Notes under the pieces: generated by a model
What the model was told of the DNA's origin: nothing
The model's database searches: none
The model's input: the letters and a program-made list of their open reading frames with translations, nothing else
Program-made: the position numbers and the translations under genes
Shown here: positions 17,980 to 33,769 of the stretch, one piece after another
How the letters are laid out: every line of letters begins with the position of its first letter
How positions within the stretch are numbered: the stretch's first letter is position 1
Source of the DNA: Leadbetterella sp.
Lineage (GTDB): Bacteria > Bacteroidota > Bacteroidia > Cytophagales > Spirosomataceae
Direction of reading: 5' to 3'
DNA: 64,000 bases
Assembly (NCBI GenBank): GCA_019638185.1
Contig: JAHBUH010000005.1
Location: 61,300-125,299 of the forward strand

Positions 17980-20900
17980 TTAGTAGTTAATTGTTATTCT
18001 GTTTGGAGTATTAAAATCACTTATATGTGGAGGTAAATAACAGGTATAATATATAGAAAAGTATGCTCCTTGACATCTGGGAATATCTCCTTTTAATTTC
18101 AAATATTGAAACTTATTAGATTTTCGCGTTGTATAAATTATATTTTCAGGATTTGGCAGCAAACAACCATTATATCCATTGGGCACCGCAGTAGATAAGA
18201 ATGTCTCAGGATGTTTATTGGTAAAAATAATCTCATATCGTTCATACTCCATATTATTTCTAAGTTCAGTACCTACAAAAGTTGTTCCCATCGTTTGGGG
18301 CATAATAAGTTGATTTGAGTTACAGGTTTCCTCAATAGGGGTACAAGCTAAAACGTGTATTGCAGAAGAAGCTATAGAAGTTTGACAGTCTGTACTACAT
18401 CTAGCTGTATATACTCCCACACCTACATTTATACTTGCTCCGCTCATATTATTACTCCATGTAATTGTCCCATTACATCCAGCAGCCGTAAGAGTAGCCT
18501 GTTCTCCATCACATATTGTCGTTTTGTTAACACTTATAACCGGTGGAGTCGGTGAGTTTGTACTATTGACTGTTACGCTATTGGATTGCTTAGCATCACA
18601 CCCTATCTTACTACACGTAGCCGTATAACTCCCTACTCCCACCGATATCGAAGCCCCTGCACCACCATTACTCCATGTCACTGTTTCACCGACACATCCT
18701 GTAGCCGTCAAAGTAGCCTTTTCTGTACCACAGACCGAGGTTTTATTCGTAGATATTGTAAATGTAAAATTACAGGGCTCTTTCTCATCTATCACCGTTC
18801 CCTCGTTAGAAGCCCCGCTTACACATCCTTCTATCACACACTGAGCGGTATAGGTGCCTGCACCTGCACTGATTTGATTTCCGGTGTCGCCTGTACTCCA
18901 TTTGATTGTGCCGCCACAGTTCGAAGCATACAGTGTTATGGTTTGGCCTGCCGTTACCGTTCCTGAACCGGGTATGATCACCGGAGCCGGTGGAGGGTTA
19001 AGACAATTTCCAATCGTAAAGTCGGTCATAGCGCTGGCGCTACCTTCGCAGCTGTTAGCGGCTTTGCATTTGGCGTAGTGAAAATGACGGCCGGTTGCTG
19101 ACTCGTAGTATTTACTGCCTGACCCGATGTGCTGATTGCCGCTGTTGTACCACTCTACTGCGTGAGAGCCACACCCGGTGGCTTCTATTTCTACGGTGGT
19201 TCCCGTATTAAACGGCGAGTTTCCTTTCACAGTAACGGATGGCACGGGGAGGGGGGTTACACATTGCCCTATCTGAACTCTCACCCAGCCTGAAAGCTCA
19301 CTTTCACAATTATTCGCACCCTGGGTACACGTAGCTCTGAAATACTGGTCGCCCACACTGTTTATACTGTGTACTACGTTGTTAGAAATTTTTGCTCCAC
19401 CCGAATTGTACCAGGTGATGGTGCCCCCATCGCAGCCATGAGCCTGCAGGAATACGGTAGTGCCTTCTTCATAGACCGTGTTTCCGTCTATAACGGTATC
19501 TCCTATCTTGGCAAAGGCATACGGTGCAGCAGGTGGATTGGTACATTTCTCTACACGAATGACTATATAGCCGGTAAAACCACTTTCACAGCCGTTATGA
19601 TCTTTACAGGTAGCTTTGTAGTAATAGGGGCCTCCAATACCTATATGACTAAAATCCGCTCCCGTGCCTACCATCTGGTCTCCCGAGTTATACCAGATTA
19701 CGGTACCGGAGCAGCCTCTCCCGTACAGCGGGATGGAGCTGCCGTATTCCGCCGTTTGGCCATCATAAGGAGAAGATATGGCGGGCGGCTCAGGTGTGCA
19801 GCTGCACTTATCAATATGGATGTTTTCATCACTGAAGTTACTCTCACAGCCATCAGGTGTAACACATTTCACCCTGTATTGATAATACCCGTTTTCGGTT
19901 TCCTTTCTCATAAGGTAGTTGTCCATATAGGCCAGGTATTCGTCGTTACGATACCATTTTAGGATACCGCCATTGTTGCACGTCGTAGCATGCAGTTCCG
20001 TTTCCGTGCAGGAGGTCCAGCCGCCGGGCATCTTGGTGAGGGTAGGCCCCGAAGGCCTGGCTAAGAGGTTAAGTGTGACCCTATTGGAGGGATCACTGTA
20101 GCACTCGTTGAGTTTGCATCGGATTTTATAGGTAAACTGCCGGGGGGTAGAGAGGTCCGGATGAGCTACTGTCCGGGTATTTCCGCCGCTTGTCCACGGA
20201 CCCTCATTTTCTGACCATTGCAATACACCCGGGCAGAAAACTGATGCGGTTAACGTGGCTTCCATACTGGCACAGTAGTGCTCCTCTGTGCGGGAAGATA
20301 CTAACTTCGGGGCAGCTAACGGGTTATATACGGTAATGGTTATCTCATTGGTAACTACTTCTATGCAGTTCAGATCATAACACCGGGCGGTGTAAGTGGT
20401 GCTGATTTCAGGGCTAACGGTAACGGTGGCTGTAGTGGCCCCGTTTGACCATTCCACGGCATGCGGGCATCCTGTAATAGTCAGTGTGGTACTGTAGCCT
20501 TTGCATATACTGCTGTTATCGGCTGTGGTAGAGATAGACGGGGCGAAATTGACTTTGGGGGTAACGATGAATTCATTGTCTTTTACTTCTACCAGGAGTG
20601 AAGCGCCCGATTCCAGTTTAATTTCATTGGTTACCGGGTTAGCGTTTCCGCCCTTGGTGTTCAGCATATAACTGAAACCCGAAGTTTCGTTAAATGTAAA
20701 CAGGTAATCTGACGTTATTTCTTTTGCAGAAGCGGCACAAGCCTTTAACTTTATTTTTCCGCTCAGCAGGGCATTAATCTTACGATTGCAGCCAAAGGTG
20801 ACGTAGGCCTTTTCTAATGAGGCATCCAAAGGATGGATTCCCGAAGTGGTGCCTTTATCCAGGGCAATGAGCTTGTCAGCACCGGCCTGGCCTATTAATC

Positions 20901-21837
20901 CCCCGTTTATGTCCATAAACAACCCGCTGGAAGGTATTTTGGCTAATTTTCCTCCGTCTTTTTGAAGGATAATTCCCGGTAGGCGCAGGTTAAAGTTACC
21001 CAGGGATACCCCCTGCCAGTAATTGCCTGACTCTGCTCCGCATTTCGGCAAACCCGGAGGGTTCTGGCGAATACTGAAATCTATCAGGGCATTACTACCT
21101 GATTCAAAATGAAAGCCGAATTCTTTGATTTGGCGGGAATGGAAATGATTTGCTACACGGGCCTGCAGAAAAATATCGTTCCAGTCATAAACCGTTTGCG
21201 AAGCAAACACCAAAGCCAGCGGAAGCTCCGGATGTATACTTTTTCCTTCACTATCTTCCTGGTTTACGCTGTTAAATATTTTCAGATAACCAGACAGCGT
21301 CAGTTTTTCAAAAGCTCCGCAGTTAAAACTCAGCCGCGTGTCCTGGTCCAGGCCCAGCACCATGGTATTGCCGGACATAGCCACTTCAAAAAACTTGTTT
21401 TTGCCGGCCAGCAAACTCACCGCTTCCGGACTTAGCTGGGCATTTTTTTCGGAGCTGAGCAGCCCGGGAAGCAGGCGCATTTCTCCCTTAAAGCCGTGTT
21501 TGGCCGAAAAACCGATAGCGGGGCTGTTAAAATAAAGCACCTGGCCGGGCATTTCAGGATTAGGTACAAAGCGGGCTCCCACTTCTAAGGTAGAACCGCC
21601 GGCCGTAAAGTTCATGGCCGTAACCACGATGTCATACGTATGCTCATCTATGGTGGTGCGGAACACCACCGGCAAAGACGAAAGGCCGGACTCCGGAATG
21701 CTGCCTGAGCTCACACTCACTACCCGCCCTTTACTGACGGCTTCATTAATGGCTCCCTCTATTTGGGCTCCCGTAAGGGCGGTTTGCGAATAACCGAAAA
21801 GCGGCAGAAAAAATAAAAATGTAAATAGTGCTCTCAT
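17980..21837 (-). CDS. Secreted Cys-rich protein with Ig-like repeats, no T9SS CTD
   Basis: 1285 aa, signal peptide ending GYS-Q; about 8 repeats of type PxAP...TLTAxGCxGxVxWSNG...YTAxC; unique N-terminal about 420 aa; AT-rich 3' end. Confidence 0.8.
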   Translation of the reverse strand: MRALFTFLFFLPLFGYSQTALTGAQIEGAINEAVSKGRVVSVSSGSIPESGLSSLPVVFRTTIDEHTYDIVVTAMNFTAGGSTLEVGARFVPNPEMPGQVLYFNSPAIGFSAKHGFKGEMRLLPGLLSSEKNAQLSPEAVSLLAGKNKFFEVAMSGNTMVLGLDQDTRLSFNCGAFEKLTLSGYLKIFNSVNQEDSEGKSIHPELPLALVFASQTVYDWNDIFLQARVANHFHSRQIKEFGFHFESGSNALIDFSIRQNPPGLPKCGAESGNYWQGVSLGNFNLRLPGIILQKDGGKLAKIPSSGLFMDINGGLIGQAGADKLIALDKGTTSGIHPLDASLEKAYVTFGCNRKINALLSGKIKLKACAASAKEITSDYLFTFNETSGFSYMLNTKGGNANPVTNEIKLESGASLLVEVKDNEFIVTPKVNFAPSISTTADNSSICKGYSTTLTITGCPHAVEWSNGATTATVTVSPEISTTYTARCYDLNCIEVVTNEITITVYNPLAAPKLVSSRTEEHYCASMEATLTASVFCPGVLQWSENEGPWTSGGNTRTVAHPDLSTPRQFTYKIRCKLNECYSDPSNRVTLNLLARPSGPTLTKMPGGWTSCTETELHATTCNNGGILKWYRNDEYLAYMDNYLMRKETENGYYQYRVKCVTPDGCESNFSDENIHIDKCSCTPEPPAISSPYDGQTAEYGSSIPLYGRGCSGTVIWYNSGDQMVGTGADFSHIGIGGPYYYKATCKDHNGCESGFTGYIVIRVEKCTNPPAAPYAFAKIGDTVIDGNTVYEEGTTVFLQAHGCDGGTITWYNSGGAKISNNVVHSINSVGDQYFRATCTQGANNCESELSGWVRVQIGQCVTPLPVPSVTVKGNSPFNTGTTVEIEATGCGSHAVEWYNSGNQHIGSGSKYYESATGRHFHYAKCKAANSCEGSASAMTDFTIGNCLNPPPAPVIIPGSGTVTAGQTITLYASNCGGTIKWSTGDTGNQISAGAGTYTAQCVIEGCVSGASNEGTVIDEKEPCNFTFTISTNKTSVCGTEKATLTATGCVGETVTWSNGGAGASISVGVGSYTATCSKIGCDAKQSNSVTVNSTNSPTPPVISVNKTTICDGEQATLTAAGCNGTITWSNNMSGASINVGVGVYTARCSTDCQTSIASSAIHVLACTPIEETCNSNQLIMPQTMGTTFVGTELRNNMEYERYEIIFTNKHPETFLSTAVPNGYNGCLLPNPENIIYTTRKSNKFQYLKLKGDIPRCQGAYFSIYYTCYLPPHISDFNTPNRITINY

Positions 21838-22865
21838 TTGGATATAGTGGTTAAAATATCTTCAACTTGCTTGTATAGTGCCGGATCGCTGATGTGTTCG
21901 TTATAGTATTTTTTCAGGAAATCTGCTTCCTGCTGTTCAAGGGTTTCCCGTTTCTGACAATAGTCCTTCAGCAGTTTAATGGCATCCTGTAGTTTTGAAT
22001 TCCTGAAATAATAACCGCTCTCTGCCATAAAAAACCGGCCGGCTATACTAAGTTCGTCTACTCCGATAGACTTTAAGGCAGCCTGCATAAATTTAAGTTT
22101 TGAAAAGCTGAAACGCTCCGCTCTTTCGGAATGGAGGCTCCACATAATCACATTTTCGAGAGCCTGGTTTACTTCTTCCCGCCCGTAGCGGGTGTAGTAC
22201 TCTTCCCGGTGGTTAAGGATTTGCATAAACAGCGGATGCTCGTCATCGGTGAGTACTTTCTGAAGAATCATAAACCCATCGTCTTTGGGAGGCTCTGCGC
22301 CCGTAAGTAAGCCGTAGGCCTGCATGGCTTCTATGTTCAGGTTTTCATCAGAGGTATACCGGGCCAGGTAAGCCAGGTTTACCAAAAAGTCGGGCTGCCG
22401 GTAACCCTCCCTAAAGGCCTGTTTCTGAGCGGGCCAGTTGGCTTTGGGGTCGAGAGCCCGCGCAGCAAAAGCCATAATGGAGGTTTCGTTATTCTGAGGG
22501 TCGCCCGCCGGATAAACCGCCAGCAGTGTGCTGTCCGCCTGCCAGAAAGTAAGCAGCGGTGTAGACATCACATTCAGTTCCAGGTTTTGACGGAATGCCC
22601 TACCGTCTTCCGAATTTACCTCCAGTTTATAATTTACGAAGGTGGTATTGTAATGTCCGCCAATGGTACTGTTTATGGCAAAAGTTTCCAGAAAATGTTC
22701 ACAGTGGGGGCAGCCGTCAGCATGAATCATGATAAAAAGCGGTTTCCGTAAAACTTCTGCTTTACGAAAAGCCGACTGCAGGTCTCCGTTCTCAAAATTT
22801 ATCTGAGAGAAAGCCGTAAGCGGAAACAGCAGAATTAATAGTAGTTTATTTTTTATTAATCGCAT
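21834..22865 (-). CDS. Exported thioredoxin-family protein (CPHC active site)
   Basis: Likely start MRLIKN at 22865 (track starts at 22883); signal peptide; KPLFIMIHADGCPHC; overlaps next gene by 4 nt. Confidence 0.82.
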   Translation of the reverse strand: MRLIKNKLLLILLFPLTAFSQINFENGDLQSAFRKAEVLRKPLFIMIHADGCPHCEHFLETFAINSTIGGHYNTTFVNYKLEVNSEDGRAFRQNLELNVMSTPLLTFWQADSTLLAVYPAGDPQNNETSIMAFAARALDPKANWPAQKQAFREGYRQPDFLVNLAYLARYTSDENLNIEAMQAYGLLTGAEPPKDDGFMILQKVLTDDEHPLFMQILNHREEYYTRYGREEVNQALENVIMWSLHSERAERFSFSKLKFMQAALKSIGVDELSIAGRFFMAESGYYFRNSKLQDAIKLLKDYCQKRETLEQQEADFLKKYYNEHISDPALYKQVEDILTTISK

Positions 22866-22921
22866 AGAGTTTATGTATATCATTTCTTAGATAGTTTGTA
22901 GAATCTTTATATTTCGGGCTT

Positions 22922-23114
22922 CTATTTGGTCTTCCACTTCTCATACACCGCCTTTTTGAGAAAAAGTTTAGTTAATGAATCCCTGCTTAAGGTAGAATTA
23001 TCTATTTTGTTACCATCACTGTCCCAATACGCCCATTTCTCATATTGAAATTCTATTCTTTCAAAGAAGGAGTCATTGATTTCCCAGTTGCCGGTGGAAG
23101 ATTTTTTTAAATAA
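22922..23114. repeat. 193-nt direct repeat, copy 1
   Basis: Matches 24270-24462 at 189/193 nt by manual alignment; encodes the identical last 63 aa of immunity C and B. Confidence 0.9.
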
Positions 23115-23593
23115 CCTCGAAATACTTCTTTCATCACAATATTGTGAAGTTCCTCAAAAGTATTTGGAACATAACGTATTTGCTGATTTCGTGGAGCGAC
23201 AAGATATGGGCCATAAAAAAAGAACCACTTATCATCAATTTTAATCCCATATATGTAATGTATCCCATCATGAGTAGCATCATCATATTTTGATAGTTGT
23301 ACCTTTATAGCTCCTATCAACTTATTACCTTCACTTTTAAAACATAAAAGGGAGTCTAATTCCCATGTATTAACTTTCAGATTTTGGATTATTTTCAGAT
23401 TGCTATCTATCCAATTATTCAAGCTGTCATTCATTTGAGAATATGCCTTTTCATACTCTTTTTCTCCTACAATTCCAATAGAATGCTTGCGATAGAGCAA
23501 AGTATAGTCTTCAGAAGTTTCTTTACTCTTTTTTTGCTCGCAAGCAACTAGCAAAATCACTAGAATCAATATAATTTTATTTTTTATTAACAT
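22922..23593 (-). CDS. Putative immunity lipoprotein C (orphan cassette C)
   Basis: 223 aa, lipobox LVAC; paralog of 24270-24944 and 25119-25768 (shared GIxIxxKWxFF and YLKKSS...WEIN motifs); start overlaps stop of upstream toxin-tip fragment. Confidence 0.7.
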   Translation of the reverse strand: MLIKNKIILILVILLVACEQKKSKETSEDYTLLYRKHSIGIVGEKEYEKAYSQMNDSLNNWIDSNLKIIQNLKVNTWELDSLLCFKSEGNKLIGAIKVQLSKYDDATHDGIHYIYGIKIDDKWFFFYGPYLVAPRNQQIRYVPNTFEELHNIVMKEVFRGYLKKSSTGNWEINDSFFERIEFQYEKWAYWDSDGNKIDNSTLSRDSLTKLFLKKAVYEKWKTK

Positions 23594-24008
23594 GTCCTGG
23601 CTCTTCTTGTTTTAGTTCAAATATCCACCCATAATTACTAATACTATGACTATTCAAGAAACTTTTAGGAACTTCAATAGAAAAATCTTCATACATTTCG
23701 TACACCGGTACAGGATTACCTGCTCGGTCTTGGCCTATCCGGATTATCCTGGTTTTCAGGACTGGCCGTGTGGTGGTATAGCTGTCCGGAATAAATGCAC
23801 GCCCACTTTTTACAGTAGCAATTTCCAGACCTCCCACGGCGCATTGGGGAGCCACACCATCCTGTTTCCAAAGAAAATCCGCATTTTTTTCGCCCAGATT
23901 ACTTCCGTATTGCCAAACCTGTTGCCAACGATCCGGATTTACCGAGCCTCCGCAACCGTTTTCAGGCGCAATAATATAATAGCCTCCCCACCGTATACGG
24001 CCTCCCAG
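23577..24008 (-). pseudogene. Orphan toxin C-terminal fragment C (in frame with RAYT fragment)
   Basis: QDGVAPQCAVGGLE...KSGRAFIP...SHSISNYGWIFE, homologous to fragments at 24928-25110 and 25752-25940. Confidence 0.65.
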
Positions 24009-24146
24009 CTGCTCTTGGCAGAACTTAAAGCTGGCCCAAAGTATATTTCTATAGACCTTTCTTGTAAAAACATCCACCCAATCTACAATGGTAAAGGTCA
24101 TAAAGTGAGGTGCTTCTTGACTTCGTATAACATAACCTTCTTTCAT
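24009..24146 (-). mobile_element. N-terminal fragment of REP-associated tyrosine transposase (RAYT, IS200/Y1-like)
   Basis: MKEGYVIRSQEAPHFMTFTIVDWVDVFTRKVYRNILWASFKFCQEQ matches the recalled Bacteroidota RAYT start (HFxTxTxxxWxDxF...SxxxCQ); truncated before the HUH motif. Confidence 0.75.
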
Positions 24147-24169
24147 TTCATTTTCTTTTAAGTATTTAT

Positions 24170-24217
24170 GCGGTCAGAGACCGCTAAACACCCTCCCTAC
24201 GTCTGAAGACGTGGGAG
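24170..24217. repeat. Two REP-like hairpins upstream of the RAYT fragment
   Basis: GCGGTC-AGA-GACCGC (24170-24184) and CTCCCTACGTC-TGAA-GACGTGGGAG (24193-24217). Confidence 0.6.
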
Positions 24218-24269
24218 AGCGGGGAGAACGGGGTAAAAGGTATAATATCTATTAGAACTCTTCGGACTT

Positions 24270-24462
24270 TTATTTTGTCTTCCACTTCTCATACACCGCC
24301 TTTTTGAGAAAAAGTTTAGTTAATGAATCCCTGCTTAAGGTAGAATTATCTATTTTGTTACCATCACTGTCCCAGTACGCCCATTTCTCATATTGAAATT
24401 CTATTCTTTCAAAGAAGGAATCATTGATTTCCCAGTTGCCGGTGGAAGATTTTTTTAAATAA
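24270..24462. repeat. 193-nt direct repeat, copy 2
   Basis: See 22922-23114; offset 1348 nt. Confidence 0.9.
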
Positions 24463-24944
24463 TTCCTATAAGCATTTTTTATAGCTATTTCATGAAGTTG
24501 CTCAAAACTAAGGGAGGTTCCTCGTTTACGAGAAATAACCATTGTAGCACCAACAAAAAAATACCATTTCTTCTCTATTGCTACACCATATAAATACCAA
24601 ATGTCGTCTTGTGTGCAATTGGGTTTGTTACATTGCAATGACAATGTTGTAACTAACTTGTTTCTAAATCTATTAAAACACATTACATTATCTAATTTAT
24701 AAGGATAAAGTTCTAAAGCCGGAAATGCCTTAACGTTATTTCCTTGCCAATTCTTTAGAGAATCCTTAATTGCTTGATGGACCTCATTGTAAACTTCTTT
24801 ACCAATCAAATTTTGAGATTGAGTAATTACTCGCCTTTCAATAGCATACAAATTCGTACCTTCTTTTTCCCTTTCATTAGGATAGCATCCTAGTAAAAGA
24901 GGGAAAAATAGATAAAATAGCTTTTTTTTATTTGGGTATAACAT
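24270..24944 (-). CDS. Putative immunity lipoprotein B (orphan cassette B)
   Basis: Likely start MLYPNKKKLFYLFFPLLLGC at 24944 (track starts at 24983); lipobox LLGC; paralog of Imm A and C. Confidence 0.7.
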   Translation of the reverse strand: MLYPNKKKLFYLFFPLLLGCYPNEREKEGTNLYAIERRVITQSQNLIGKEVYNEVHQAIKDSLKNWQGNNVKAFPALELYPYKLDNVMCFNRFRNKLVTTLSLQCNKPNCTQDDIWYLYGVAIEKKWYFFVGATMVISRKRGTSLSFEQLHEIAIKNAYRNYLKKSSTGNWEINDSFFERIEFQYEKWAYWDSDGNKIDNSTLSRDSLTKLFLKKAVYEKWKTK

Positions 24945-25110
24945 AACCAGGTAATCCATTTTGACGTTCAAATATCCACCCATAATTACTAATACTATGG
25001 CTTTTCACAAAACCCTTTGTAGTAACGTTTGTGAGTATAAATGTACGACCACTTTTACTTGTCAGGCTTTCCAAACGTTCTACAGAACATTGCGCAACTA
25101 CACCATCTTG
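24928..25110 (-). pseudogene. Orphan toxin C-terminal fragment B
   Basis: QDGVVAQCSVERLESLTSKSGRTFILTNVTTKGFVKSHSISNYGWIFERQNGLPGYVIPK*; 24968-25083 matches 25798-25913 at 110/116 nt. Confidence 0.65.
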
Positions 25111-25118
25111 CCTATTTT

Positions 25119-25768
25119 TTAGTATAATTTCTTTGACGAGGTATTTCTCTTGTTCCAATTTGATTCTATGACTGACTTTGTCCACCATCTTTCCCATTCT
25201 TCCTCAGTTTCAAATTTACCCTTATGAATAGCTAATATTCTGTCGATATCACTAAAAAACTCCTCATTGATTTCCCATTCATCACTAGAAGATTTTTTTA
25301 AGTAACCCTGAAATACTTTTTTCATGGCGATGTCGTGGAGTTGGGTGAAGGTTAATGATTTCCCCTTTTCTCTAGGTAGAACCATATAAGGACCACTAAA
25401 AAAATACCACTTGTCTTCTATCTGGACTCCATAAAAAAAAGTAATTCCGTCACCCTTCCCTTTCGAATCGGAATTCCTAACTTTAAGAGCCATGATAGAT
25501 TTTGTCCCATCTTTGTTTACACAAAAGTTGAATCAATTTCACTATCATTTATTGTATATTGGTATGACTTAAGACTAGCGTTTTGCCAAGAAATCAAAGA
25601 ATCTTGTGCCGACTTATATAATTTCAAATAATTTCCATTTAGTGATTGATCTGAATATTGAAATATCAACTTTTCATTTAATAGACCAGCATCCTTATTA
25701 TCATTGATACAGCCTAATAATAAAATATTAATAACAATGATTAGACAACACTTATTTAGACTTAACAT
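25119..25768 (-). pseudogene. Putative immunity lipoprotein A, split by a 1-nt frameshift
   Basis: MLSLNKCCLIIVINILLLGC... (start 25768) ends ...EIDSTFV*; one extra T in the run at 25523-25526 gives EIDSTFCVNKDGTKSIMALKV, joining 25119-25493 into a 216-aa paralog. Confidence 0.75.
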
Positions 25769-25940
25769 AACCAGGAGCTCCTTCTTTAATTGTTCCATCA
25801 AATATCCATCCATAATTTCCAATACTATGGCTTTTCACAAAGCCCTTTGTAGTAACGTTTGTGGGTATAAATGTACGACCACTTTTACTTGTCAGGCTTT
25901 CCAAACCTTCTACCGCACACTGTGGAGCTACGCCATTTTG
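25752..25940 (-). pseudogene. Orphan toxin C-terminal fragment A (no start codon, missing from ORF track)
   Basis: Manual translation QNGVAPQCAVEGLESLTSKSGRTFIPTNVTTKGFVKSHSIGNYGWIFDGTIKEGAPGYVKSK*. Confidence 0.7.
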
Positions 25941-25951
25941 TAACCTGCTCT

Positions 25952-25971
25952 GCTTAGTCTCCTGACTAAGC
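25952..25971. repeat. REP-like perfect hairpin at the 5' edge of cassette A
   Basis: GCTTAGTC-TCCT-GACTAAGC, flanked by near-direct repeats TAACCTGCTC (25941) and TTACCTGCTC (25979). Confidence 0.6.
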
Positions 25972-26127
25972 GGAAGTGTTACCTGCTCTCTGATCGGAAT
26001 ACTCCCAAAAAATAAAAATACAATTTCAAAGGGCTTTATTATCAGTCAAATACTGATTTGTAATCTTCTATTATTAACTTTTAAACCCACAATAAAAATA
26101 ACCACCAACTTCTTTGATATATTACCA

Positions 26128-26155
26128 AACCTCATTTCGATCAAGAAATGAGGTT
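26128..26155 (-). terminator. Perfect 11-bp hairpin, possible terminator or processing stem
   Basis: AACCTCATTTC-GATCAA-GAAATGAGGTT, 5 nt after the stop at 26161; weak U tract. Confidence 0.4.
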
Positions 26156-26160
26156 ACCAG

Positions 26161-26388
26161 CTAATTTGAAAAATTGCCTGAGTTATTTTTTTCTTTAATA
26201 AACCATTTTTTATAAACTATTACGTAAACTACAGATGATATAATGCCTCCTCGAATAACATTTGCAGGGATATCAAATTCAACATATAATCTTCCTTTTG
26301 GTACTTGTGCTTCAAAGCCTAAAGGTCCATTTAATAGAACATGAGTAATACCATTTTCACTCTCTTGTAAAATTTTTGTTTCTAACAT
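26161..26388 (-). pseudogene. TreTu-like ADP-ribosyltransferase toxin remnant
   Basis: LQESENGITHV...FEAQVPKGRLYVEFDIP resembles the recalled TreTu core VQESxxGxTHV...QAxxGSxYVEFDVP; the upstream RWMS motif is absent and the end diverges. Confidence 0.55.
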
Positions 26389-26409
26389 TCTTACTTACAA
26401 ACTTATCTA

Positions 26410-26952
26410 TCATGGTCGTCCTGGATTCATAGGATCATAAATATAAAATCGAATATTAGGGTTAGACTTAGTCCCATTCGGATAATATAATAGTTTCTTA
26501 TCTTTCTTTTTTATAGAGTAATATGGTCTAACAGGTTCAAAATCATTGGCCAATTCTTTGACGGTTCCTCCGCTTCTAATTACAGATATTAACTCCACAT
26601 CACTATAATATTTTGAACCCCAAAATTTGTGAAATAGCAATCCTCTTCCAATAGAACTAGGTCCTGAATTTCTATTTACTGTTAATCCTTCTTCATAAAA
26701 AGTTTGTATAAAAAAATTGACATTTTTAATTTTCAAAGAGTCTTTAAAATTAGCATTTACATAAAACGAGTCTACTAAAGCTATTAAGTCCAAATTGTCT
26801 TTCGGTGGATGATTAATAACATAGTAATGTACAACCTTTGTACTGTCGTAATCTGCCCACCTGAGCTTAAAAATTTCTGCTTGTTTTTCTTTGCAGCTTA
26901 AACTAGTTAACACCACTATAAAAATGAATAGTATATTTCTAATAATTTCCAT
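26410..26952 (-). CDS. Putative cognate immunity lipoprotein of the 2276-aa toxin
   Basis: 180 aa, lipobox SLSC, AT-rich, start overlaps the toxin stop by 14 nt. Confidence 0.7.
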   Translation of the reverse strand: MEIIRNILFIFIVVLTSLSCKEKQAEIFKLRWADYDSTKVVHYYVINHPPKDNLDLIALVDSFYVNANFKDSLKIKNVNFFIQTFYEEGLTVNRNSGPSSIGRGLLFHKFWGSKYYSDVELISVIRSGGTVKELANDFEPVRPYYSIKKKDKKLLYYPNGTKSNPNIRFYIYDPMNPGRP

Positions 26953-29900
26953 TGATAGTTTCGTTAAATTTTATAACTGTAATAAATGGCATTTTGCAAT
27001 GTTTTTTTGAGTGCTGCAATATAAACCATGAACGAAAACCACTCATCTGTGAGAATAATAATTTTTCTTTAGGATCAATATCTAATGAATCGAGTCCAAA
27101 ATGGTCAAATATTTCAATATCAAAGGATGCCGTATAGGATCTATTGTCTTTATTTAGAATAAATTTTGTTAAATTAATACCATATCCCCAGGTATCGTTA
27201 ACTGCTATACCTAATCCTGTAAATTTGTCATCCCAAGTTGGAGATGGAATATCTTCTCTCCTCAGGGGGTCTCCTATAGGTCTAGGATTACCGACTTCAT
27301 ATGTTATAACTCCCTTATTTTTAATAAATTCTTCATCATTTTTAAGTTTAAATTCAAGATTTTGTTTTATTCTATTTATAAATAATCTAGTATTCTGATG
27401 CGTTTTACCTGCTTCTGTTAAATCTGGATTAGAATATTCTCCACCTACGCCAGAAATAAACTTATCAACCATTGCAAAGTTATTTTCAAATAAATTAATT
27501 GACATAGGAGCAATCATTATTTTCCACGCACCTATTAACTCTCTTTCCGATAAGCCCAACTCTTCTCTAGTCTTATAATTTAATTGTATAATCTCCTCAT
27601 CTTCCATATCACAGCTCATCATGTCATGGTGTGGGCCGGTATTATCATGATTCATACCTTTTTTATGAAACGACCGGGCTATCAGGTAAGGTGTAAAGCT
27701 CTTATCATAAATCTCCTGAGGCAGAAAGCCCTCTTTGCACAGGCTGGTACAGGCAGTGCTGCCCTGCCTCTGTTCCGCATATCCGCTGGGGGTGCAGGGT
27801 GTTATTCCTTCCCGGTAAAAACCGGCAAAAGCATTGTGATTGTCTTTTTCAAAATACACGGAGTATTCTCCTTCCCACCATTTATCAGCTTGGTTAGTGG
27901 TTTTCACCTTTATTTTAGTAGGACTTAAAACGGTAATGGTTACCCCGTCTTTAGGTGTAAAAGTGTAGGCTCGGGTATGAGGGTATTTTCTTACGGTAAA
28001 CGGTTGCTCTCCACCTACTCGGGCACCGGCAATAGCCACCACCGCCACTTCACCCACCGATTCTACTTCCACCAGTCCCGACAGTTCCTTACTAACCTTA
28101 GCTTGGGTAGTGGCGGTATTGTTTCTGCCGTCTTTTACTATTACAGAGTAGGTGCCGTCCGGCAGGTTATTAAACACATTGTTTTCATGAAATGTGCTGC
28201 CGCCGTCTATACTGTATTGGTAGGGTGGTGTACCACAACCGGCATATACGGTAATAGAATTAGTAGTACCGGAAACACAATTTTCATAAGTCAAGGAAGT
28301 AGAAATCTCAAGCGGGTGGTCATTTTCTAAGGTTACTTCCTTAACCCCCACGCATCCCGAAGCGTCAGACACTGTAATAGTATAAGTTCCCGGGCTGACA
28401 TTTTCAAAATAAGGGGACGTTTGCGATTGCTGGTTATTTAGTTTATATGTATAGGGCTCCTCTCCATCCAGCGGTATAACGGTAATGGTGTTAGTCTTTT
28501 GCCCTGGGATACAATTAGCGTACGCTATTGAAGTATCAAAATCAAGAGTTTTACTATCTTCCACCACTGCCACTGCACTCGCCGTACAGTTAAACGCATC
28601 TTTCACAGTTACGGTATAGTTACCGGCATCCAGGTTCTCAAAGACCGGGGAGTCCTGGAAATCTAGGCCGTTGATACTGTACCGGTAGGGCGGATTTCCA
28701 CCGGTAACCGTAACGGTTATCTTACCATTGGCTCCGCAGGCTGCGTTTTGCACGGCAGGTATTACGATAGGAGGATCGAATGGATGATAGGTAAAGCTGG
28801 CCGTGCAGCCGTTTTTATCTCTTACTGACACGGTCATATCTGTGTTTTCCAGGTTATTGAAAACACTCATGTTTCCGGTATAAGTATCCTTTCGTGTGGA
28901 TACGATATACGTGTAAGGCAACTGTCCCCCCTGTGGGCTTAAACTTACATTTACGCGAGTTGCAGGGTTATCGTTGCAAGCCGCATTTTCCCCGGAATCG
29001 GTGTATACCTGTCCGGTCAGAGTTAGCACCGGAATGTCAGGTAAGGTGATTTGTTGCGATACAGAACAGCCTTCATTTTCAACCTCTACTTTAATAAAAT
29101 GTGTTCCGGGGCCTGCATTAATGTCCATATTTACACCACCTGAACCGCTCTTCTTTGCTACCTGCTTATCATTGAGGTAAAACGTGTAATTAAAATATTT
29201 AGGGTTATATATTCCATCATCACCGTTTTTCATGATGAGCTGATTTTCTACATTGATATGAATAATTGAGTTTGAAGAGCCACAGATTATCCGTGGAGGA
29301 GAAACCGTAAGAGCTAAGGTGTTAGTTGTGATTTCAACTTCATTATTCTCATATTTAGATGTTTCCAGTTTACATTCATTAGCATCAATGCCTGATATTT
29401 TGTACCGGCCGCTCGATAAGCCATCGATGGTTATATTTCTTTTTTCAATAGTTTTTGAATATCTGTAACCATTGTCAGATTCTATGTTTAAAGTTAGTGG
29501 TAGTTTGGCATAGGGGAATTCAAGTTCCAATGACGCTGGTTTACAAATATGTTTTTTGACCCTTACATTCACAATGGAGTTTTTTTCAAAATATTTGATA
29601 GCAGTATAAGATGGAAAAAGTCCCCGGCTGTATTCTTTGTTCCATTCCTCAGAGGTTACTGTTTCAATTCGTACGGGAGCTCCTTTATTTTTTATTTTTA
29701 CCAGATACTCATGCCCCTGAACAAACAACACTTTTTCACGTACTGTACCCATACTGTCTTTAACTTTTATCGCAAATGAATGACTTTTGATTTTTTTATC
29801 GATCAGGTAGTTTTGGAGACCGGTTATCTTATTATGTGTTTGCCAGGAATCATCTTGATAATTATATGTATAAGGCTCCTTTCCACAAATAGGTGTGATA

Positions 29901-32900
29901 TAAACGGTATTTTCACAATCGTAAAATTTAGAGATGTTAAAGTCCAGGGAGGTGGTACGCCTAACTTCTACCGTTTTCGGTGAGCTCTTACATCCATTAG
30001 CATCGGATACTGAAATAGTATAGGTGCCGGTAACCAGATCTGAAAGTTCTAACGATGCTTCATCGGAAGTGTATTCTGAAGTAGTACCGTTAGCCCCTGT
30101 AAGATAATAGGTAAACGGGGCTATACCTGAGGCTTTAAGACGGATTACATCCACTTCACTACATCGTTTAGTTGACTCTACTTCCAGTTTCGGTTCAAAA
30201 GGCTCAAACCGGCACCATTTACCTGATTGAAAATCATAACTGTACCATTGGTTACCGGTAGTTCTTGCAATCGTGTATTTAAATCCTATTTTCCAGTATT
30301 CTGTTCCACTGTCTTCATAATACATATCTCCGTTTGGAGCCATTTGGACCATAATATTTTTATATGATTTATCGATCTGATACATCAGCATATCCAATGA
30401 TTCATAGTTTGCAGAATTATTTTTTAACGTTTCCAGGTAACACTTGGGTATTTCTTCATGGGTTGCAAAGCAGTTTTCATCACCAGGGGTCAATCGGGGA
30501 ATCACCATTATCATTACTACCTCCGGTGGAGATAATTCTTCAAAAGTGGTGTCGGGAAGGAAATGGTAGGTGCTATCATTATATATTCCTTCTTTAGTGG
30601 CCGGTTTAATTTTTTTCTCCCTGACATTACCACAAAACATCCATTTATGTAATCGAACTTTTTTGCAGTGTAGTAATCGTCGCAAACTATAGCTGACCTC
30701 ATATTGATTACAGTTATTTTGAGCCCATACTAAACAGGTATTGTAGTCAAAATTACATAAAGGAAAAGGAGATGGCACATTCATTTTATAATACATTTCA
30801 CCGGGTAATGCACTGTTTATGGTGGGTTCCGTTTCATTGTTTTGTATGCAGATATCCTTTTCAATATCTTTTAATGGACTCCCGGTACCTACTCCTGAGC
30901 CTGAATTATTTCCGTTTGAGGTATTTTCGTCCTTTTCCTTGCAATCCAATACCCGAGTGACAGATATTAATCTGGCATCATCTATAGAGCAATTCTGATA
31001 GAGGTACTTATCATAAGTAGGTCTAAGGCAATTGCCATCTAATGGATGCACACCTGACTCAAGCAGTGTTATTACTGTTAAACCCTTTGGGTCCCAGAGA
31101 GTTGGCCAGGAAGTACACCCCACATTAAATACACATGAACCTTTGTAATAACAATCCTGAACCGCTAATTCATTTGAGGTCAATATCTGGCTTATTCCTG
31201 AGGAGCTTGCAGATACCAGAGCAAATATTGCTGTATTAGCTAGTGAAAAGAGTTTTTTGCCTTTATCAAAAGCGGTTACTTTGATTATACTATTGGTAGG
31301 TTCATTTATGATTAAATAATTTTTTTCGGTATAGATTACGACTGTAAAGCCATCATTCTTGGTATATTCAATTTTGTATGATTTATGCTCTTTATTCTTG
31401 TCCCATATGATTTTATAACTTAGACTGTCATTTTCCATGACCATCAAATTTTCAATGGGTGGAAAAGCTGACTTCAAAGTAGTGAACTCCTTAGGCCCAA
31501 AGTTATCCTCTGATTTTTCAGCTATTCCTTTGATGGTAAAATTATAAGTGCTGTTTTGGGTCAGCTCACCCAGCAGGAGTGTAGGCTTAGTCACCTCTTT
31601 CACCACTACTCCCTGCTCTTCCGTCTGATAACTTACCAGATATTTTGTAAATCTTTTATCCCCCTTCCAGGTAATGGTAGCTTCGGAGTCGGTTATGTTT
31701 TTCACCACCACATCCATGATTTTGGGTAAATCATCGGTAGGCTCTTTGCGTTTTTCGATGTCCGCTTTAATTTTCTCTGTGATGGCCTTTATCTCCATTT
31801 TCCACTCCCGGTTTTCCGGGCAGCCGGGTCCGCTTTCTAGAGTAGCGATATTGGCCTCCAGTACATGGATCAGGGGCTGAGTGCGGCTAAGTACTTCATC
31901 ACCTTCCATATCCAGTTCGTCGTACAGGTCAGCTACCTCCTGAGCCCACTCCTGCAGCCCCTGCCGGGCCAGCAGGTGCTTTTGCAGCAGGCTTTGCCGC
32001 GCCTCATCGGTAACGGCTTTCCCTTCACAAAGGTCTTTCCCGGTAGTGCTGAGCTCTTCACTCAGCTGTGTAATCACCTGGTCCCGGCTGACGTAGATAC
32101 TGGCAGAATCAGTACGGGTTCTCACCGTGTGGATCAGGTCTGTTTCTTCCTGCCGGATTTGCCCGGAAGTGAGACCGTTCCTCACCCGGAAATAGCCGTT
32201 TACGTGCGTTACACAGCCGCCGTTTTGATCCGGGCTCTGGCGCCGGATCTCTACATTACTGAACTCCACCGGCATTTTATGGTCATCCAGGAAAGGCATC
32301 TTTACCAGCCCCTTTCCGCTGAAGATATTATTTCCGCCTGATACCTGTGTGAGCACTACCAGGTAGTCATAGATGGTTACCAGGTCACCGGCTTTGAGGG
32401 CGAGTAAATCCAGACTCCCCTGGATCACATGGCCTTCAGGATGCTGGTCAGAGCATTCCTCATAACTGTGCAGCTGGGAGTAACAGGGTATGCGGGTGGG
32501 GTCTGAAGGAATGAGGTCCTCAAAAGTCTGTGGCAGAGGCGCTGTACTCATGGTCTGAGCTCCGGGGTTTCCGGAGGAGGCTACGGGCTGACTAAGCGGA
32601 TTTAGTACCCGTTCCCGGAGCTGCTCCAGTTCCTGGTCTGCCGGGCCTTCGGCCTGCCAGGTGACCATCTCTGATTCGGGGCTTTCATTTCCGATCTCAC
32701 AGACTGTAATTACCTTAAATTCATAATCCAGTTCCGGGTTCAGACTCACCAGGCTCACTCGGGTGCCCAGGGTGGTTTGCTCTGTCCAGCCGGTCTGGTT
32801 TTCGGAGCGGTACAGCAGCTTATAGCCGGTGGCTTGTGCATAGACATTCCAGGATATATTCAGCCTTCCGGGTGCTACGGCGTTCACCTGCAGGCCGGTA

Positions 32901-33769
32901 GGCGGCTTACATGCCTCTCCAAACCGGAACCAGGTTACTTCACTGAAGCCCTGGTTCTGAAATTCAAGGTTAGCGCTCAGGTCTTCTACCTGGACCTGGA
33001 AAGCATAGCGTTTTCCTACTTTCAGGGGCAGGTCAGAGGCTTTGAGTTGGTAGCTGGTGCCGCGCTGGGGTGGGATTTCAAAGCAGGTCTGGCTGGAGGT
33101 GATGGCCGCACTGGGGTTTTCATCTTCGGCCACTTCACATACTTTTCCACGGTAGCTGATGAGGTTAGATCCGGTGGCGGTGTGGCGGGGCATCCACTGC
33201 AGCAACACGCTCTGGGGGCGGGTAACGGGCTGCTCCGAGCCTATGAGGGGCAGGTTAATGACCGGCGGGAGGGCGTAGGCCACGGAAAAGAAGGTTTCGG
33301 CGGTGTTAGAGACCTGCCGGCCGGTACCGGCTTCATAAGCTGTAACTTTAAAGGTATAGAACCCTTCGGGGAGCTTACCGTTAAACAGGGTATTTTCACT
33401 GACCCCTGAAGTGGCCAGTATGCCCGGCCGGAAGTAATCCCGCAGGTCTGTACCCCTGAGGCTGCGGCGGGAGCCTTTGGTAAGTGTAATATAATCCGGC
33501 GCTACATAGCCCGGCACGCTGCCGGCTTCTATTCCCAGGCCTACTCCTGTAATCTGCCAGCCCAGGTAAACATCCACAGTGCTTTTAGTGAGGTCTTTTA
33601 GAATAAGGTCAAGGCTCAGTACCTGGCTGTTACTGAAGTACTCGGGCAGCTTCAGGCTCGCTTTTTGAACAAAGACATGGGCCTGCACCGGGTAGTTGTC
33701 GCCGGTCAGCTGGGCATACCCCCGGATGGAGAGTACTAAAATCGTAAAGAGTGTAAATATTTTTTTCAT
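26939..33769 (-). CDS. Large secreted polymorphic-toxin-like protein: signal peptide, TANFOR-like domain, FN3, SprB-like repeats, DUF3289-like tip
   Basis: 2276 aa; NYPVQ...LPEGFYTFKVTAYE N-terminus; FN3 (CKPPTGL...LNISW...YEFKV); GGxPPYxYS...YTVTVKD repeats; tip NDTWGY...IFDHFGLD...GFRSWFILQH...PFIT; no PNP/YPNP CTD. Confidence 0.8.
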   Translation of the reverse strand: MKKIFTLFTILVLSIRGYAQLTGDNYPVQAHVFVQKASLKLPEYFSNSQVLSLDLILKDLTKSTVDVYLGWQITGVGLGIEAGSVPGYVAPDYITLTKGSRRSLRGTDLRDYFRPGILATSGVSENTLFNGKLPEGFYTFKVTAYEAGTGRQVSNTAETFFSVAYALPPVINLPLIGSEQPVTRPQSVLLQWMPRHTATGSNLISYRGKVCEVAEDENPSAAITSSQTCFEIPPQRGTSYQLKASDLPLKVGKRYAFQVQVEDLSANLEFQNQGFSEVTWFRFGEACKPPTGLQVNAVAPGRLNISWNVYAQATGYKLLYRSENQTGWTEQTTLGTRVSLVSLNPELDYEFKVITVCEIGNESPESEMVTWQAEGPADQELEQLRERVLNPLSQPVASSGNPGAQTMSTAPLPQTFEDLIPSDPTRIPCYSQLHSYEECSDQHPEGHVIQGSLDLLALKAGDLVTIYDYLVVLTQVSGGNNIFSGKGLVKMPFLDDHKMPVEFSNVEIRRQSPDQNGGCVTHVNGYFRVRNGLTSGQIRQEETDLIHTVRTRTDSASIYVSRDQVITQLSEELSTTGKDLCEGKAVTDEARQSLLQKHLLARQGLQEWAQEVADLYDELDMEGDEVLSRTQPLIHVLEANIATLESGPGCPENREWKMEIKAITEKIKADIEKRKEPTDDLPKIMDVVVKNITDSEATITWKGDKRFTKYLVSYQTEEQGVVVKEVTKPTLLLGELTQNSTYNFTIKGIAEKSEDNFGPKEFTTLKSAFPPIENLMVMENDSLSYKIIWDKNKEHKSYKIEYTKNDGFTVVIYTEKNYLIINEPTNSIIKVTAFDKGKKLFSLANTAIFALVSASSSGISQILTSNELAVQDCYYKGSCVFNVGCTSWPTLWDPKGLTVITLLESGVHPLDGNCLRPTYDKYLYQNCSIDDARLISVTRVLDCKEKDENTSNGNNSGSGVGTGSPLKDIEKDICIQNNETEPTINSALPGEMYYKMNVPSPFPLCNFDYNTCLVWAQNNCNQYEVSYSLRRLLHCKKVRLHKWMFCGNVREKKIKPATKEGIYNDSTYHFLPDTTFEELSPPEVVMIMVIPRLTPGDENCFATHEEIPKCYLETLKNNSANYESLDMLMYQIDKSYKNIMVQMAPNGDMYYEDSGTEYWKIGFKYTIARTTGNQWYSYDFQSGKWCRFEPFEPKLEVESTKRCSEVDVIRLKASGIAPFTYYLTGANGTTSEYTSDEASLELSDLVTGTYTISVSDANGCKSSPKTVEVRRTTSLDFNISKFYDCENTVYITPICGKEPYTYNYQDDSWQTHNKITGLQNYLIDKKIKSHSFAIKVKDSMGTVREKVLFVQGHEYLVKIKNKGAPVRIETVTSEEWNKEYSRGLFPSYTAIKYFEKNSIVNVRVKKHICKPASLELEFPYAKLPLTLNIESDNGYRYSKTIEKRNITIDGLSSGRYKISGIDANECKLETSKYENNEVEITTNTLALTVSPPRIICGSSNSIIHINVENQLIMKNGDDGIYNPKYFNYTFYLNDKQVAKKSGSGGVNMDINAGPGTHFIKVEVENEGCSVSQQITLPDIPVLTLTGQVYTDSGENAACNDNPATRVNVSLSPQGGQLPYTYIVSTRKDTYTGNMSVFNNLENTDMTVSVRDKNGCTASFTYHPFDPPIVIPAVQNAACGANGKITVTVTGGNPPYRYSINGLDFQDSPVFENLDAGNYTVTVKDAFNCTASAVAVVEDSKTLDFDTSIAYANCIPGQKTNTITVIPLDGEEPYTYKLNNQQSQTSPYFENVSPGTYTITVSDASGCVGVKEVTLENDHPLEISTSLTYENCVSGTTNSITVYAGCGTPPYQYSIDGGSTFHENNVFNNLPDGTYSVIVKDGRNNTATTQAKVSKELSGLVEVESVGEVAVVAIAGARVGGEQPFTVRKYPHTRAYTFTPKDGVTITVLSPTKIKVKTTNQADKWWEGEYSVYFEKDNHNAFAGFYREGITPCTPSGYAEQRQGSTACTSLCKEGFLPQEIYDKSFTPYLIARSFHKKGMNHDNTGPHHDMMSCDMEDEEIIQLNYKTREELGLSERELIGAWKIMIAPMSINLFENNFAMVDKFISGVGGEYSNPDLTEAGKTHQNTRLFINRIKQNLEFKLKNDEEFIKNKGVITYEVGNPRPIGDPLRREDIPSPTWDDKFTGLGIAVNDTWGYGINLTKFILNKDNRSYTASFDIEIFDHFGLDSLDIDPKEKLLFSQMSGFRSWFILQHSKKHCKMPFITVIKFNETINGNY

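Follow-up and report, generated by a model that had tools for sequence, protein, structure and literature searches.

A probable fossil array of displaced lipase-type toxin tips with retained lipoprotein immunity genes behind a TANFOR-like toxin of Leadbetterella sp.

Orphan cdiA-CT/cdiI and rhs-CT/immunity arrays, together with the orphan immunity islands of Bacteroidales, consist of promoter-less 3' toxin fragments that are accompanied by their cognate immunity genes and located behind a full-length toxin gene, the cdiA-CT and rhs-CT arrays being shaped by recombination with retention of immunity; a study of gut Bacteroides (PMC12247911) likewise deals with orphan immunity. The TANFOR class of polymorphic toxins from Bacteroidetes, described by Jana, Salomon and Bosis in 2020, comprises large proteins with a Sec signal, a conserved N-terminal domain, repeats of FN3/SprB type and a variable C-terminal toxin, each encoded with a downstream immunity gene and adjoining genes for SprB/C-terminal domain (CTD) substrates of the type IX secretion system (T9SS), and the toxin tips listed for the class are nuclease, peptidoglycan-hydrolase and ADP-ribosyltransferase domains (PMC7073777). 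The present analysis concerns a locus in a window of 64,000 nucleotides from Leadbetterella sp. (GenBank assembly GCA_019638185.1, contig JAHBUH010000005.1, positions 61,300 to 125,299 of the forward strand), in which three orphan tip fragments (A, B and C), each followed by a lipoprotein immunity gene, lie behind the gene for a resident polymorphic toxin. That toxin resembles the TANFOR class in its FN3 and SprB repeats, its variable tip, its downstream immunity gene and its SprB/CTD T9SS substrate neighbour. Orphan tips and immunity genes behind a polymorphic toxin are of a well-known kind; the toxin and immunity families found here are ones for which Pfam and NCBIfam hold no model. The array is very probably a fossil one, composed of displaced lipase-type toxin tips and the immunity genes retained with them behind a TANFOR-like toxin, and now serving at most for immunity; the homology, gene linkage, mosaic structure and strain variation described below, and the absence of a full-length copy, were observed directly.

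Alignment of the three tips revealed common motifs, Q(D/N)GV..QC.V..LE, KSGR.FI and SHSI.NYGWIF, as an earlier note based on the nucleotide sequence had reported for the same three fragments, and a search of the whole 4.2-Mb genome with tip C returned these tips as the only matches (E-values from 9e-7 to 4e-100). A profile of full-length toxin domains matched the three window fragments at E-values of 3e-30, 1e-20 and 5e-16. Behind each tip comes a lipoprotein gene with an encoded lipobox Cys; the three genes are paralogues whose products form one family, so that the earlier description of a lipoprotein of about 220 residues behind each tip held for family and gene order in all three cases and failed for immunity A, which is frameshifted. 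In every pair, the immunity ATG was located inside the G(Y/H)V codons of the tip (GGTTATGTT, GGTTATGTT and GGACATGTT) with an overlap of exactly 17 nucleotides, in agreement with the conserved coupling that the note had claimed. Repeats A and B, situated 830 nucleotides apart, proved identical at 110 of the 116 positions of their best window (25798-25913), precisely the figures given previously, and at 129 of 143 nucleotides when the whole repeat was considered.

An exhaustive HMMER search with tip C matched 249 representative proteins among 1.8 billion, 128 of them at E-values of 1e-10 or below, and the match was always located at the extreme C-terminus of proteins ranging from about 300 to 1600 residues or more; no non-terminal placement was found, a result consistent with the description of these fragments as toxin tips. 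Almost every long homologue carries (A/C)HSMG some 60-80 residues upstream of DG(V/I)xP, and an SH motif about 25 residues from its end. A metagenomic protein of 625 residues (P0005) shows 68% identity to tip C. Two alignments, one of 17 full-length domains and the other of 35, defined a unit of 260-350 residues opening with a hydrophobic strand that ends in FxNGY, followed in order by (A/C)HSMG (Ser), QDGVAPQ (Asp) and SHxIxNYxWIF (His), with H-S-x-G, the D of QDG and the H invariant in both alignments. Since Ser, then Asp, then His is the order characteristic of alpha/beta-hydrolases, the tip probably corresponds to the Asp- and His-bearing C-terminal part of such a domain. On the strength of these motifs and a predicted structure, the tip family, which the earlier note had been unable to assign to any known fold, is thus the C-terminal part of a predicted alpha/beta-hydrolase (lipase-like) toxin domain with a Ser-Asp-His triad. 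An alternative Cys-His reading of QC...SHS, of the papain or NlpC/P60-like type, was ruled out on the grounds that the Cys varies (C/S/K/Q/I/A), that the Asp and His are invariant, and that the HSMG Ser is present upstream in all long homologues.

The AlphaFold model of the domain from Dyadobacter locus L007 was a confident one (predicted local distance difference test score, pLDDT, 81; predicted template modelling score 0.82), and its top-ranked fold matches in the PDB were mainly alpha/beta-hydrolases, including Bacillus subtilis LipA, cutinases, feruloyl esterases, PGAP1 and a Tle-VgrG complex, with scores that were nonetheless weak (best E-value 2e-3, template modelling scores 0.2-0.4). 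The highest ranked of these matches was 4o5p, presumably Pseudomonas Tle1. A profile search of PDB sequences matched Bacillus-type lipases (LipA) at an identical AHSMG elbow with E-values of 0.08-0.3. The Pfam models associated with Tle families (DUF2235, Lipase_3, DUF3274, PGAP1 and PLDc) gave no match at an E-value of 0.01 or below in ten full-length proteins, nor at 1 or below in 17 domains. Three of the 17 members touched Pfam DUF900 (PF05990) short of its gathering score (best E-value 0.051), and one touched Lipase_2 (E-value at least 0.05).

The most likely identity of the toxin domain is that of a lipase or esterase, one that would attack the target-cell envelope from the periplasmic side, the predicted site of action following from the fact that the immunity proteins are lipoproteins. 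Rather less probable is that it is an alpha/beta-hydrolase of another kind, acting as an esterase or amidase on peptidoglycan O-acetyl groups, lipoproteins, lipopolysaccharide or other envelope esters. The fold family spans many activities and the fold matches include cutinases, feruloyl esterases and PGAP1, a deacylase; at the nucleophile elbow, nevertheless, the matches closest in sequence and fold are true lipases sharing the AHSMG pentapeptide of Bacillus LipA, and the match presumed to be Tle1 is a type VI secretion system (T6SS) lipase effector. Zhang et al. (2012) assigned no substrate to Tox-ABhydrolase-2, which displays the same motif pattern, NG...HSxG...D...H (PMC3482391), whereas lipoprotein immunity of the type found here is typical of lipase effectors such as Btle/Btli (PMC13699834).

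None of the three window fragments is a complete toxin, each being devoid of the delivery part, and all begin beyond the Ser motif, which lies at profile position 153 (Asp 216, His 251; profile length 274). As only the Asp and His parts are kept, the three fragments cannot be active enzymes. Tip C is the longest by virtue of both an earlier start within the domain and an insertion of about 35 residues specific to its subfamily. The possibility that tips A and B arose from the form of C by internal deletion was rejected, the short form being the commoner and the insertion confined to C's subfamily.

A scan of species-representative genomes identified 260 loci with the domain, 80 of which were fetched and examined (designated by L numbers), all from Bacteroidota save for one metagenome-assembled genome whose label looks misassigned. 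A homologue of immunity B or C (E-values down to 1e-40), starting within the last codons of the toxin gene, was located directly downstream in 32 of the 80 (about 40%), so that the association of tip and lipoprotein family postulated for the window recurs elsewhere. These 32 comprise every locus of the toxin branch with room downstream, and the only two loci recorded as without immunity inside the toxin group are both contig-end cases. In this family the immunity ATG lies 17-20 nucleotides inside the toxin's last codons, and the sequence around the overlap, GG(N)TATGTTA, is met again in numerous genera. Fourteen loci contain two to four immunity paralogues interleaved with tip fragments, with four apiece in Dyadobacter sp. 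L007 and in L017.

A maximum-likelihood tree placed the immunity-linked domains, which have long branches and come from many families, apart from two clades without an immunity gene (L025, L030-L038, L040-L045, L051-L054, L056-L065, L067, L069-L076, L078-L080 and L082-L084). Members of these clades, drawn mostly from Crocinitomicaceae and other Flavobacteriales, are signal-peptide proteins of about 300-820 residues (mostly 399-504) in one case and of about 880 residues in the other, and several adjoin housekeeping genes that look like queA, metK and hisS. The split in the tree indicates that the hydrolase family has a toxin branch and non-toxin branches, and the latter may descend directly from a harmless ancestral enzyme that was the source of the toxin tip.

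The carriers of the two groups also differed. All 16 complete immunity-linked full-length proteins matched a TANFOR-like N-terminus, whether of the main toxin in the window, of L009, or of both, and the L009 carrier itself, on a contig that stops shortly beyond the gene, is of this type too; proteins without an immunity gene never matched the N-terminus of either the window toxin or L009. The N-terminus of the window toxin is 27-29% identical to the L014 and L009 carriers (E-values 6e-18 and 3e-22), both of which match the TANFOR model TIGR02542 across its full length at 22-26 bits, below its cut-off of 67. In locus L006 (Dyadobacter diqingensis), the first ~880 residues of a 2275-residue protein are 31% identical to those of the window toxin. 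The two proteins have a pre-toxin module in common (…WEGEYSVYFEKDNHNAFAGFYRE…C.EG.LP…), after which the L006 protein continues into a lipase domain rather than DUF3289. The proposal in the earlier note that the tips originated in a relative using the same carrier accordingly gains support from the 16 N-termini and from L006, while its suggestion that they are swappable here by homologous recombination does not, there being no lipase core in the resident toxin. The related claim that the family differs from the tip of the main toxin proved correct, as that toxin ends in a DUF3289 tip with no homologous lipase core. No full-length copy of the domain was detected in this genome (95% complete) or in 30 relatives, 18 of which belong to the same genus. 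Separately, in L006 (7862-13051) the toxin-immunity pair precedes an orphan tip lacking an intact immunity gene, then a 185-residue minus-strand open reading frame of uncertain identity and a second carrier gene with an N-terminus nearly identical to the first, indicative of a tandem carrier duplication.

The immunity proteins of the window matched no family in Pfam or NCBIfam scans. A confident predicted structure, made for immunity C (pLDDT 87), has helices in its N-terminal part and then an antiparallel sheet, and for it a fold search of the PDB returned nothing significant, only weak NTF2/VirB8-like matches (E-values of at least 0.1). Three-frame translation of immunity A demonstrated that the family motifs go on in another frame beyond the frame shift (…EIDS / FCVNKDGTKSIMALKV…), the gene being split into open reading frames at 25517-25768 and 25119-25493; immunity A is thus decaying. 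The start of immunity B is at position 24944, not the upstream start chosen by the open reading frame finder. If expressed, immunity B and immunity C may still protect against neighbours firing lipase-tipped toxins. The 180-residue lipoprotein linked to the DUF3289 tip was also considered as a relative of this family, a possibility dismissed by a profile comparison in which the lipobox was the only common feature.

Pairwise comparison of the cassettes uncovered a mosaic structure. Cassettes A and B are identical at 39 of 40 positions per window through the 5' part of the tip and random-like from the last codons of the tip through the 5' half of the immunity gene. Cassettes B and C give 39-40 of 40 over the last ~230 nucleotides of the immunity gene (repeat D1, 250 nucleotides, 91%) and are diverged otherwise. 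When 44 orphan fragments from all loci were aligned to the domain profile, their 5' ends clustered at positions 142-154, 199-220 and 241-245, adjoining the stretches that contain the Ser, Asp and His motifs respectively, a pattern that recombination in conserved DNA would produce.

Evidence of variation between strains came from four metagenomic contigs, L092 (1-6193), L093, L094 and L095, which represent the same locus as window positions 22035-29090 at 97-99% identity and carry an array of two cassettes. All four are without the segment 25797-25111, which holds immunity A, the deletion falling exactly between the 143-nucleotide A/B repeats. In these strain variants, window positions 24229-23796 (spacer, transposase fragment and 5' part of tip C) are likewise absent, and the first ~100 nucleotides of tip C past the junction are only about 83% identical.

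In the window itself, tip C is preceded by a 46-residue piece of an IS200-like transposase, which supplies the ATG of a 189-residue open reading frame (23577-24146) fused to the tip. The piece is 35-53% identical to the N-termini of transposase-like open reading frames beside toxin arrays in L017, L026 and L077; the 184-residue L017 protein, to the N-terminus of which it is 37% identical, matches Pfam Y1_Tnp (PF01797). On its own, the 46-residue piece matched nothing in Pfam and it ends before the HUH motif, and is consequently a fragment rather than a gene, while no full-length RayT-like gene was found elsewhere in this genome. The same fusion to tip C occurs at 99% identity in a protein from a third assembly (P0004), and it may be conjectured that tip C and immunity C could be translated as a pair from the transposase-derived start. 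Lipase-tip arrays of unrelated Bacteroidota also have IS200-like (Y1_Tnp) transposase genes, or pieces of them, as neighbours (L017, 63-617; L026, 8959-9186; L077, 8215-8475). The 5' edges of two cassettes are marked by hairpins: GCTTAGTC-AGGA-GACTAAGC at 25950-25969 for cassette A (fold z-score -4.0) and, in the spacer upstream of cassette C, CGTCT-TC-AGACG, within a longer stem, plus GCGGTC-TCT-GACCGC (fold z-score -3.3). That these hairpins belong to a genome-wide repetitive extragenic palindromic family was not supported, one exact copy and 12 copies with two mismatches being found in the genome as against three for a control pattern.

A mechanism that would accommodate these data is one in which new tip variants recombine into the locus at those conserved stretches of the catalytic domain that encode its motifs, the previous C-terminal sub-domain being pushed downstream each time together with its immunity gene; displacement of this kind would explain why the orphans keep only the Asp/His part. 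It is plausible, therefore, that diversification operates within the catalytic domain. In the proposed order of events, lipase-type tips would have displaced one another in series on a TANFOR-like carrier, after which other families (TreTu, then DUF3289) would have replaced the tip entirely; alternatively, the low-GC block would have been imported as a whole. The lipase core has gone from this lineage, the carrier of which now bears the DUF3289 tip, and the three fragments are therefore catalytically dead and cannot be recombined back.

A number of observations tell against the account of a fossil lipase-tip array, and are best considered together. The fold-search scores for the domain model were weak and no model in the Pfam and NCBIfam scans of tips and full-length domains covered the domain, as a result of which the hydrolase assignment depends on the motifs plus the predicted structure. 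The first 900 residues of the window toxin gave no match to TIGR02542 at an E-value of 1 or below. The clades without an immunity gene signify that the domain is not toxic in every context. Finally, the immunity B orthologue in L092 is intact and differs at nine nucleotides, seven nonsynonymous and two synonymous, a ratio that fits relaxed or diversifying selection in counts too small to decide.

That ratio also lends itself to an alternative in which the array is neutral debris, its tips and immunity genes decaying after arrival with horizontally acquired low-GC DNA and subject to no selective maintenance. Such an alternative is unlikely, even though it is compatible with the frameshift in immunity A and the deletion of that gene in sister strains, with the failure to find a full-length cognate toxin in this genome or the 30 relatives, and with the presence beside the array of a TreTu_C stump that has no immunity gene. 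It accords poorly with the retention of immunity B and immunity C in both strain types, each at full length and with its lipobox intact, with the four nucleotide differences between immunity C and its L092 copy (three synonymous and one nonsynonymous, altering one residue), and with the fact that arrays keeping two to four intact immunity paralogues are common in other genera. Least probable is that the array constitutes a living reserve of exchangeable tips, able to alter the warhead of the resident toxin by recombination into its gene, for even though orphans in L007, L017, L048, L014 and L055 share conserved core-coding stretches with a resident full-length lipase-tipped toxin, orphan ends cluster at conserved motifs, and recombination between cassettes is evident both in the window and between strains, the resident toxin of the window ends in DUF3289 without a lipase core, the genome holds no other copy, and a homologous swap involving fragments that lack the Ser half would give no functional toxin.

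The fossil array is thus retained as the preferred account, and the layout of the locus is summarised in the table below. The gene order, entirely on the minus strand, runs from the 2276-residue toxin through the 180-residue lipoprotein and the TreTu_C stump to cassettes A, B and C. The Asp-motif start of tip B is only a few nucleotides past the stop of immunity A. The GC content of the array is 32-44%, compared with about 49% for the window, and the low-GC tract extends from around 23000 to 31000, reaching into the 3' half of the main toxin gene.

Table. Features of the orphan array and the adjacent toxin gene (positions within the window).
Feature	Coordinates	Strand	Description
Immunity gene C	22922..23593	-	Intact lipoprotein, 223 residues; lipobox LVAC
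Tip fragment C	23577..24008	-	143 residues; profile positions 166-274 of 274; Asp and His motifs, without Ser nucleophile
IS200-like (Y1/HUH) transposase N-terminal piece	24009..24146	-	46 codons; in-frame fusion to tip C
Hairpin spacer	24147..24269	-	123 nucleotides; two stable hairpins
Immunity gene B	24270..24944	-	Intact lipoprotein, 224 residues; lipobox LLGC
Tip fragment B	24928..25110	-	About 60 residues; profile positions 214-273 of 274; begins at QDGV (Asp) motif
Immunity gene A	25119..25768	-	Pseudogene; lipobox LLLGC; one frame shift near 25528
Tip fragment A	25752..25940	-	About 63 residues; profile positions 208-274 of 274
TreTu_C orphan remnant	26161..26388	-	75 residues; Pfam PF24691, E-value 4e-9; no immunity gene after it
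180-residue lipoprotein	26410..26952	-	Overlaps the end of the main toxin gene; presumed immunity to DUF3289 tip
Resident polymorphic toxin	26939..33769	-	2276 residues; signal peptide, TANFOR-like N-terminus, FN3, SprB repeats, pre-toxin module, DUF3289 tip

The 1724-residue protein encoded two genes upstream of the toxin (35553-40727) is a T9SS substrate with nine SprB repeats and a Por_Secre_tail (CTD). Between it and the toxin gene lies a gene (33779-35548) for a 589-residue protein with no Pfam or NCBIfam match, which is a candidate outer-membrane partner of the system. The TreTu_C stump, positioned between the DUF3289 immunity gene and tip A, is identical in the strain-variant contig L092. 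The array is immediately bordered downstream, on its own strand, by a gene (21834-22883) for a thioredoxin-like protein of 349 residues, the position of which is conserved in the strain variants, followed by one (17980-21837) for a Cys-rich repeat protein of 1285 residues without a recognised domain.

For this genome, then, the finding is an ordinary one of leftovers from past tip replacements together with retained antidotes. Among the weapons of Bacteroidota, TANFOR-type toxins form a class that was recognised only recently and has received little study. The locus and its relatives contribute to it a tip-immunity pair of wide occurrence, the lipoprotein antidote of which suggests that the cell envelope is the target. 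Experimentally the pair is convenient in that mutation of the predicted catalytic Ser is easy, the immunity is of a modular kind, and the orphan arrays hint at where the specificity determinants lie. Taken as a whole, the family could tentatively be regarded as an undescribed toxin-immunity family providing the first lipid-targeting warhead of TANFOR type, a new lipoprotein immunity fold, and sub-domain diversification by means of recombination handles at the Ser, Asp and His motifs, whereby a C-terminal sub-domain and the 5' half of the immunity gene are exchanged. Were this to be the case, the determinants of immunity specificity would reside in the last 60-130 residues of the hydrolase.

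Compared with the published account of the TANFOR class, the locus differs in its lipase tips and orphan arrays, neither of which is mentioned in the main text of that account (PMC7073777). With respect to the orphan cdiA-CT and rhs-CT arrays, there are two points of difference: the stretch kept here belongs to the catalytic domain and holds its Asp and His motifs, instead of being a pre-toxin motif (VENN or PxxxxDPxGL, for example), and the resident toxin bears an unrelated tip. Among lipase effectors, the Btle/Btli system of Bacteroides fragilis combines a lipase effector with immunity proteins that carry lipoprotein signals and with paralogous immunity genes in tandem (PMC13699834). The present family is like the T6SS Tle1-Tle7/Tli systems in deploying a predicted alpha/beta-hydrolase with a Ser-Asp-His triad as an antibacterial toxin, and in its lipoprotein immunity and tandem immunity paralogues; it differs from them in that the elbow is (A/C)HSMG rather than GxSxG, in having no match to the Tle1-5 Pfam families or Lipase_3, in its TANFOR-like rather than T6SS carrier, and in an immunity model of mixed helix and sheet rather than tetratricopeptide repeats. 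Among the class 2 lipases (Pfam Lipase_2), Bacillus LipA has the identical AHSMG pentapeptide. Tox-ABhydrolase-2 and DUF900 display the same order of motifs, NG, HSxG, D and H; however, no Bacteroidetes were listed for Tox-ABhydrolase-2, the immunity proteins of which are SUKH proteins (Zhang et al. 2012, PMC3482391), whereas the domain described here is found in Bacteroidota and is paired with immunity proteins that are lipoproteins.

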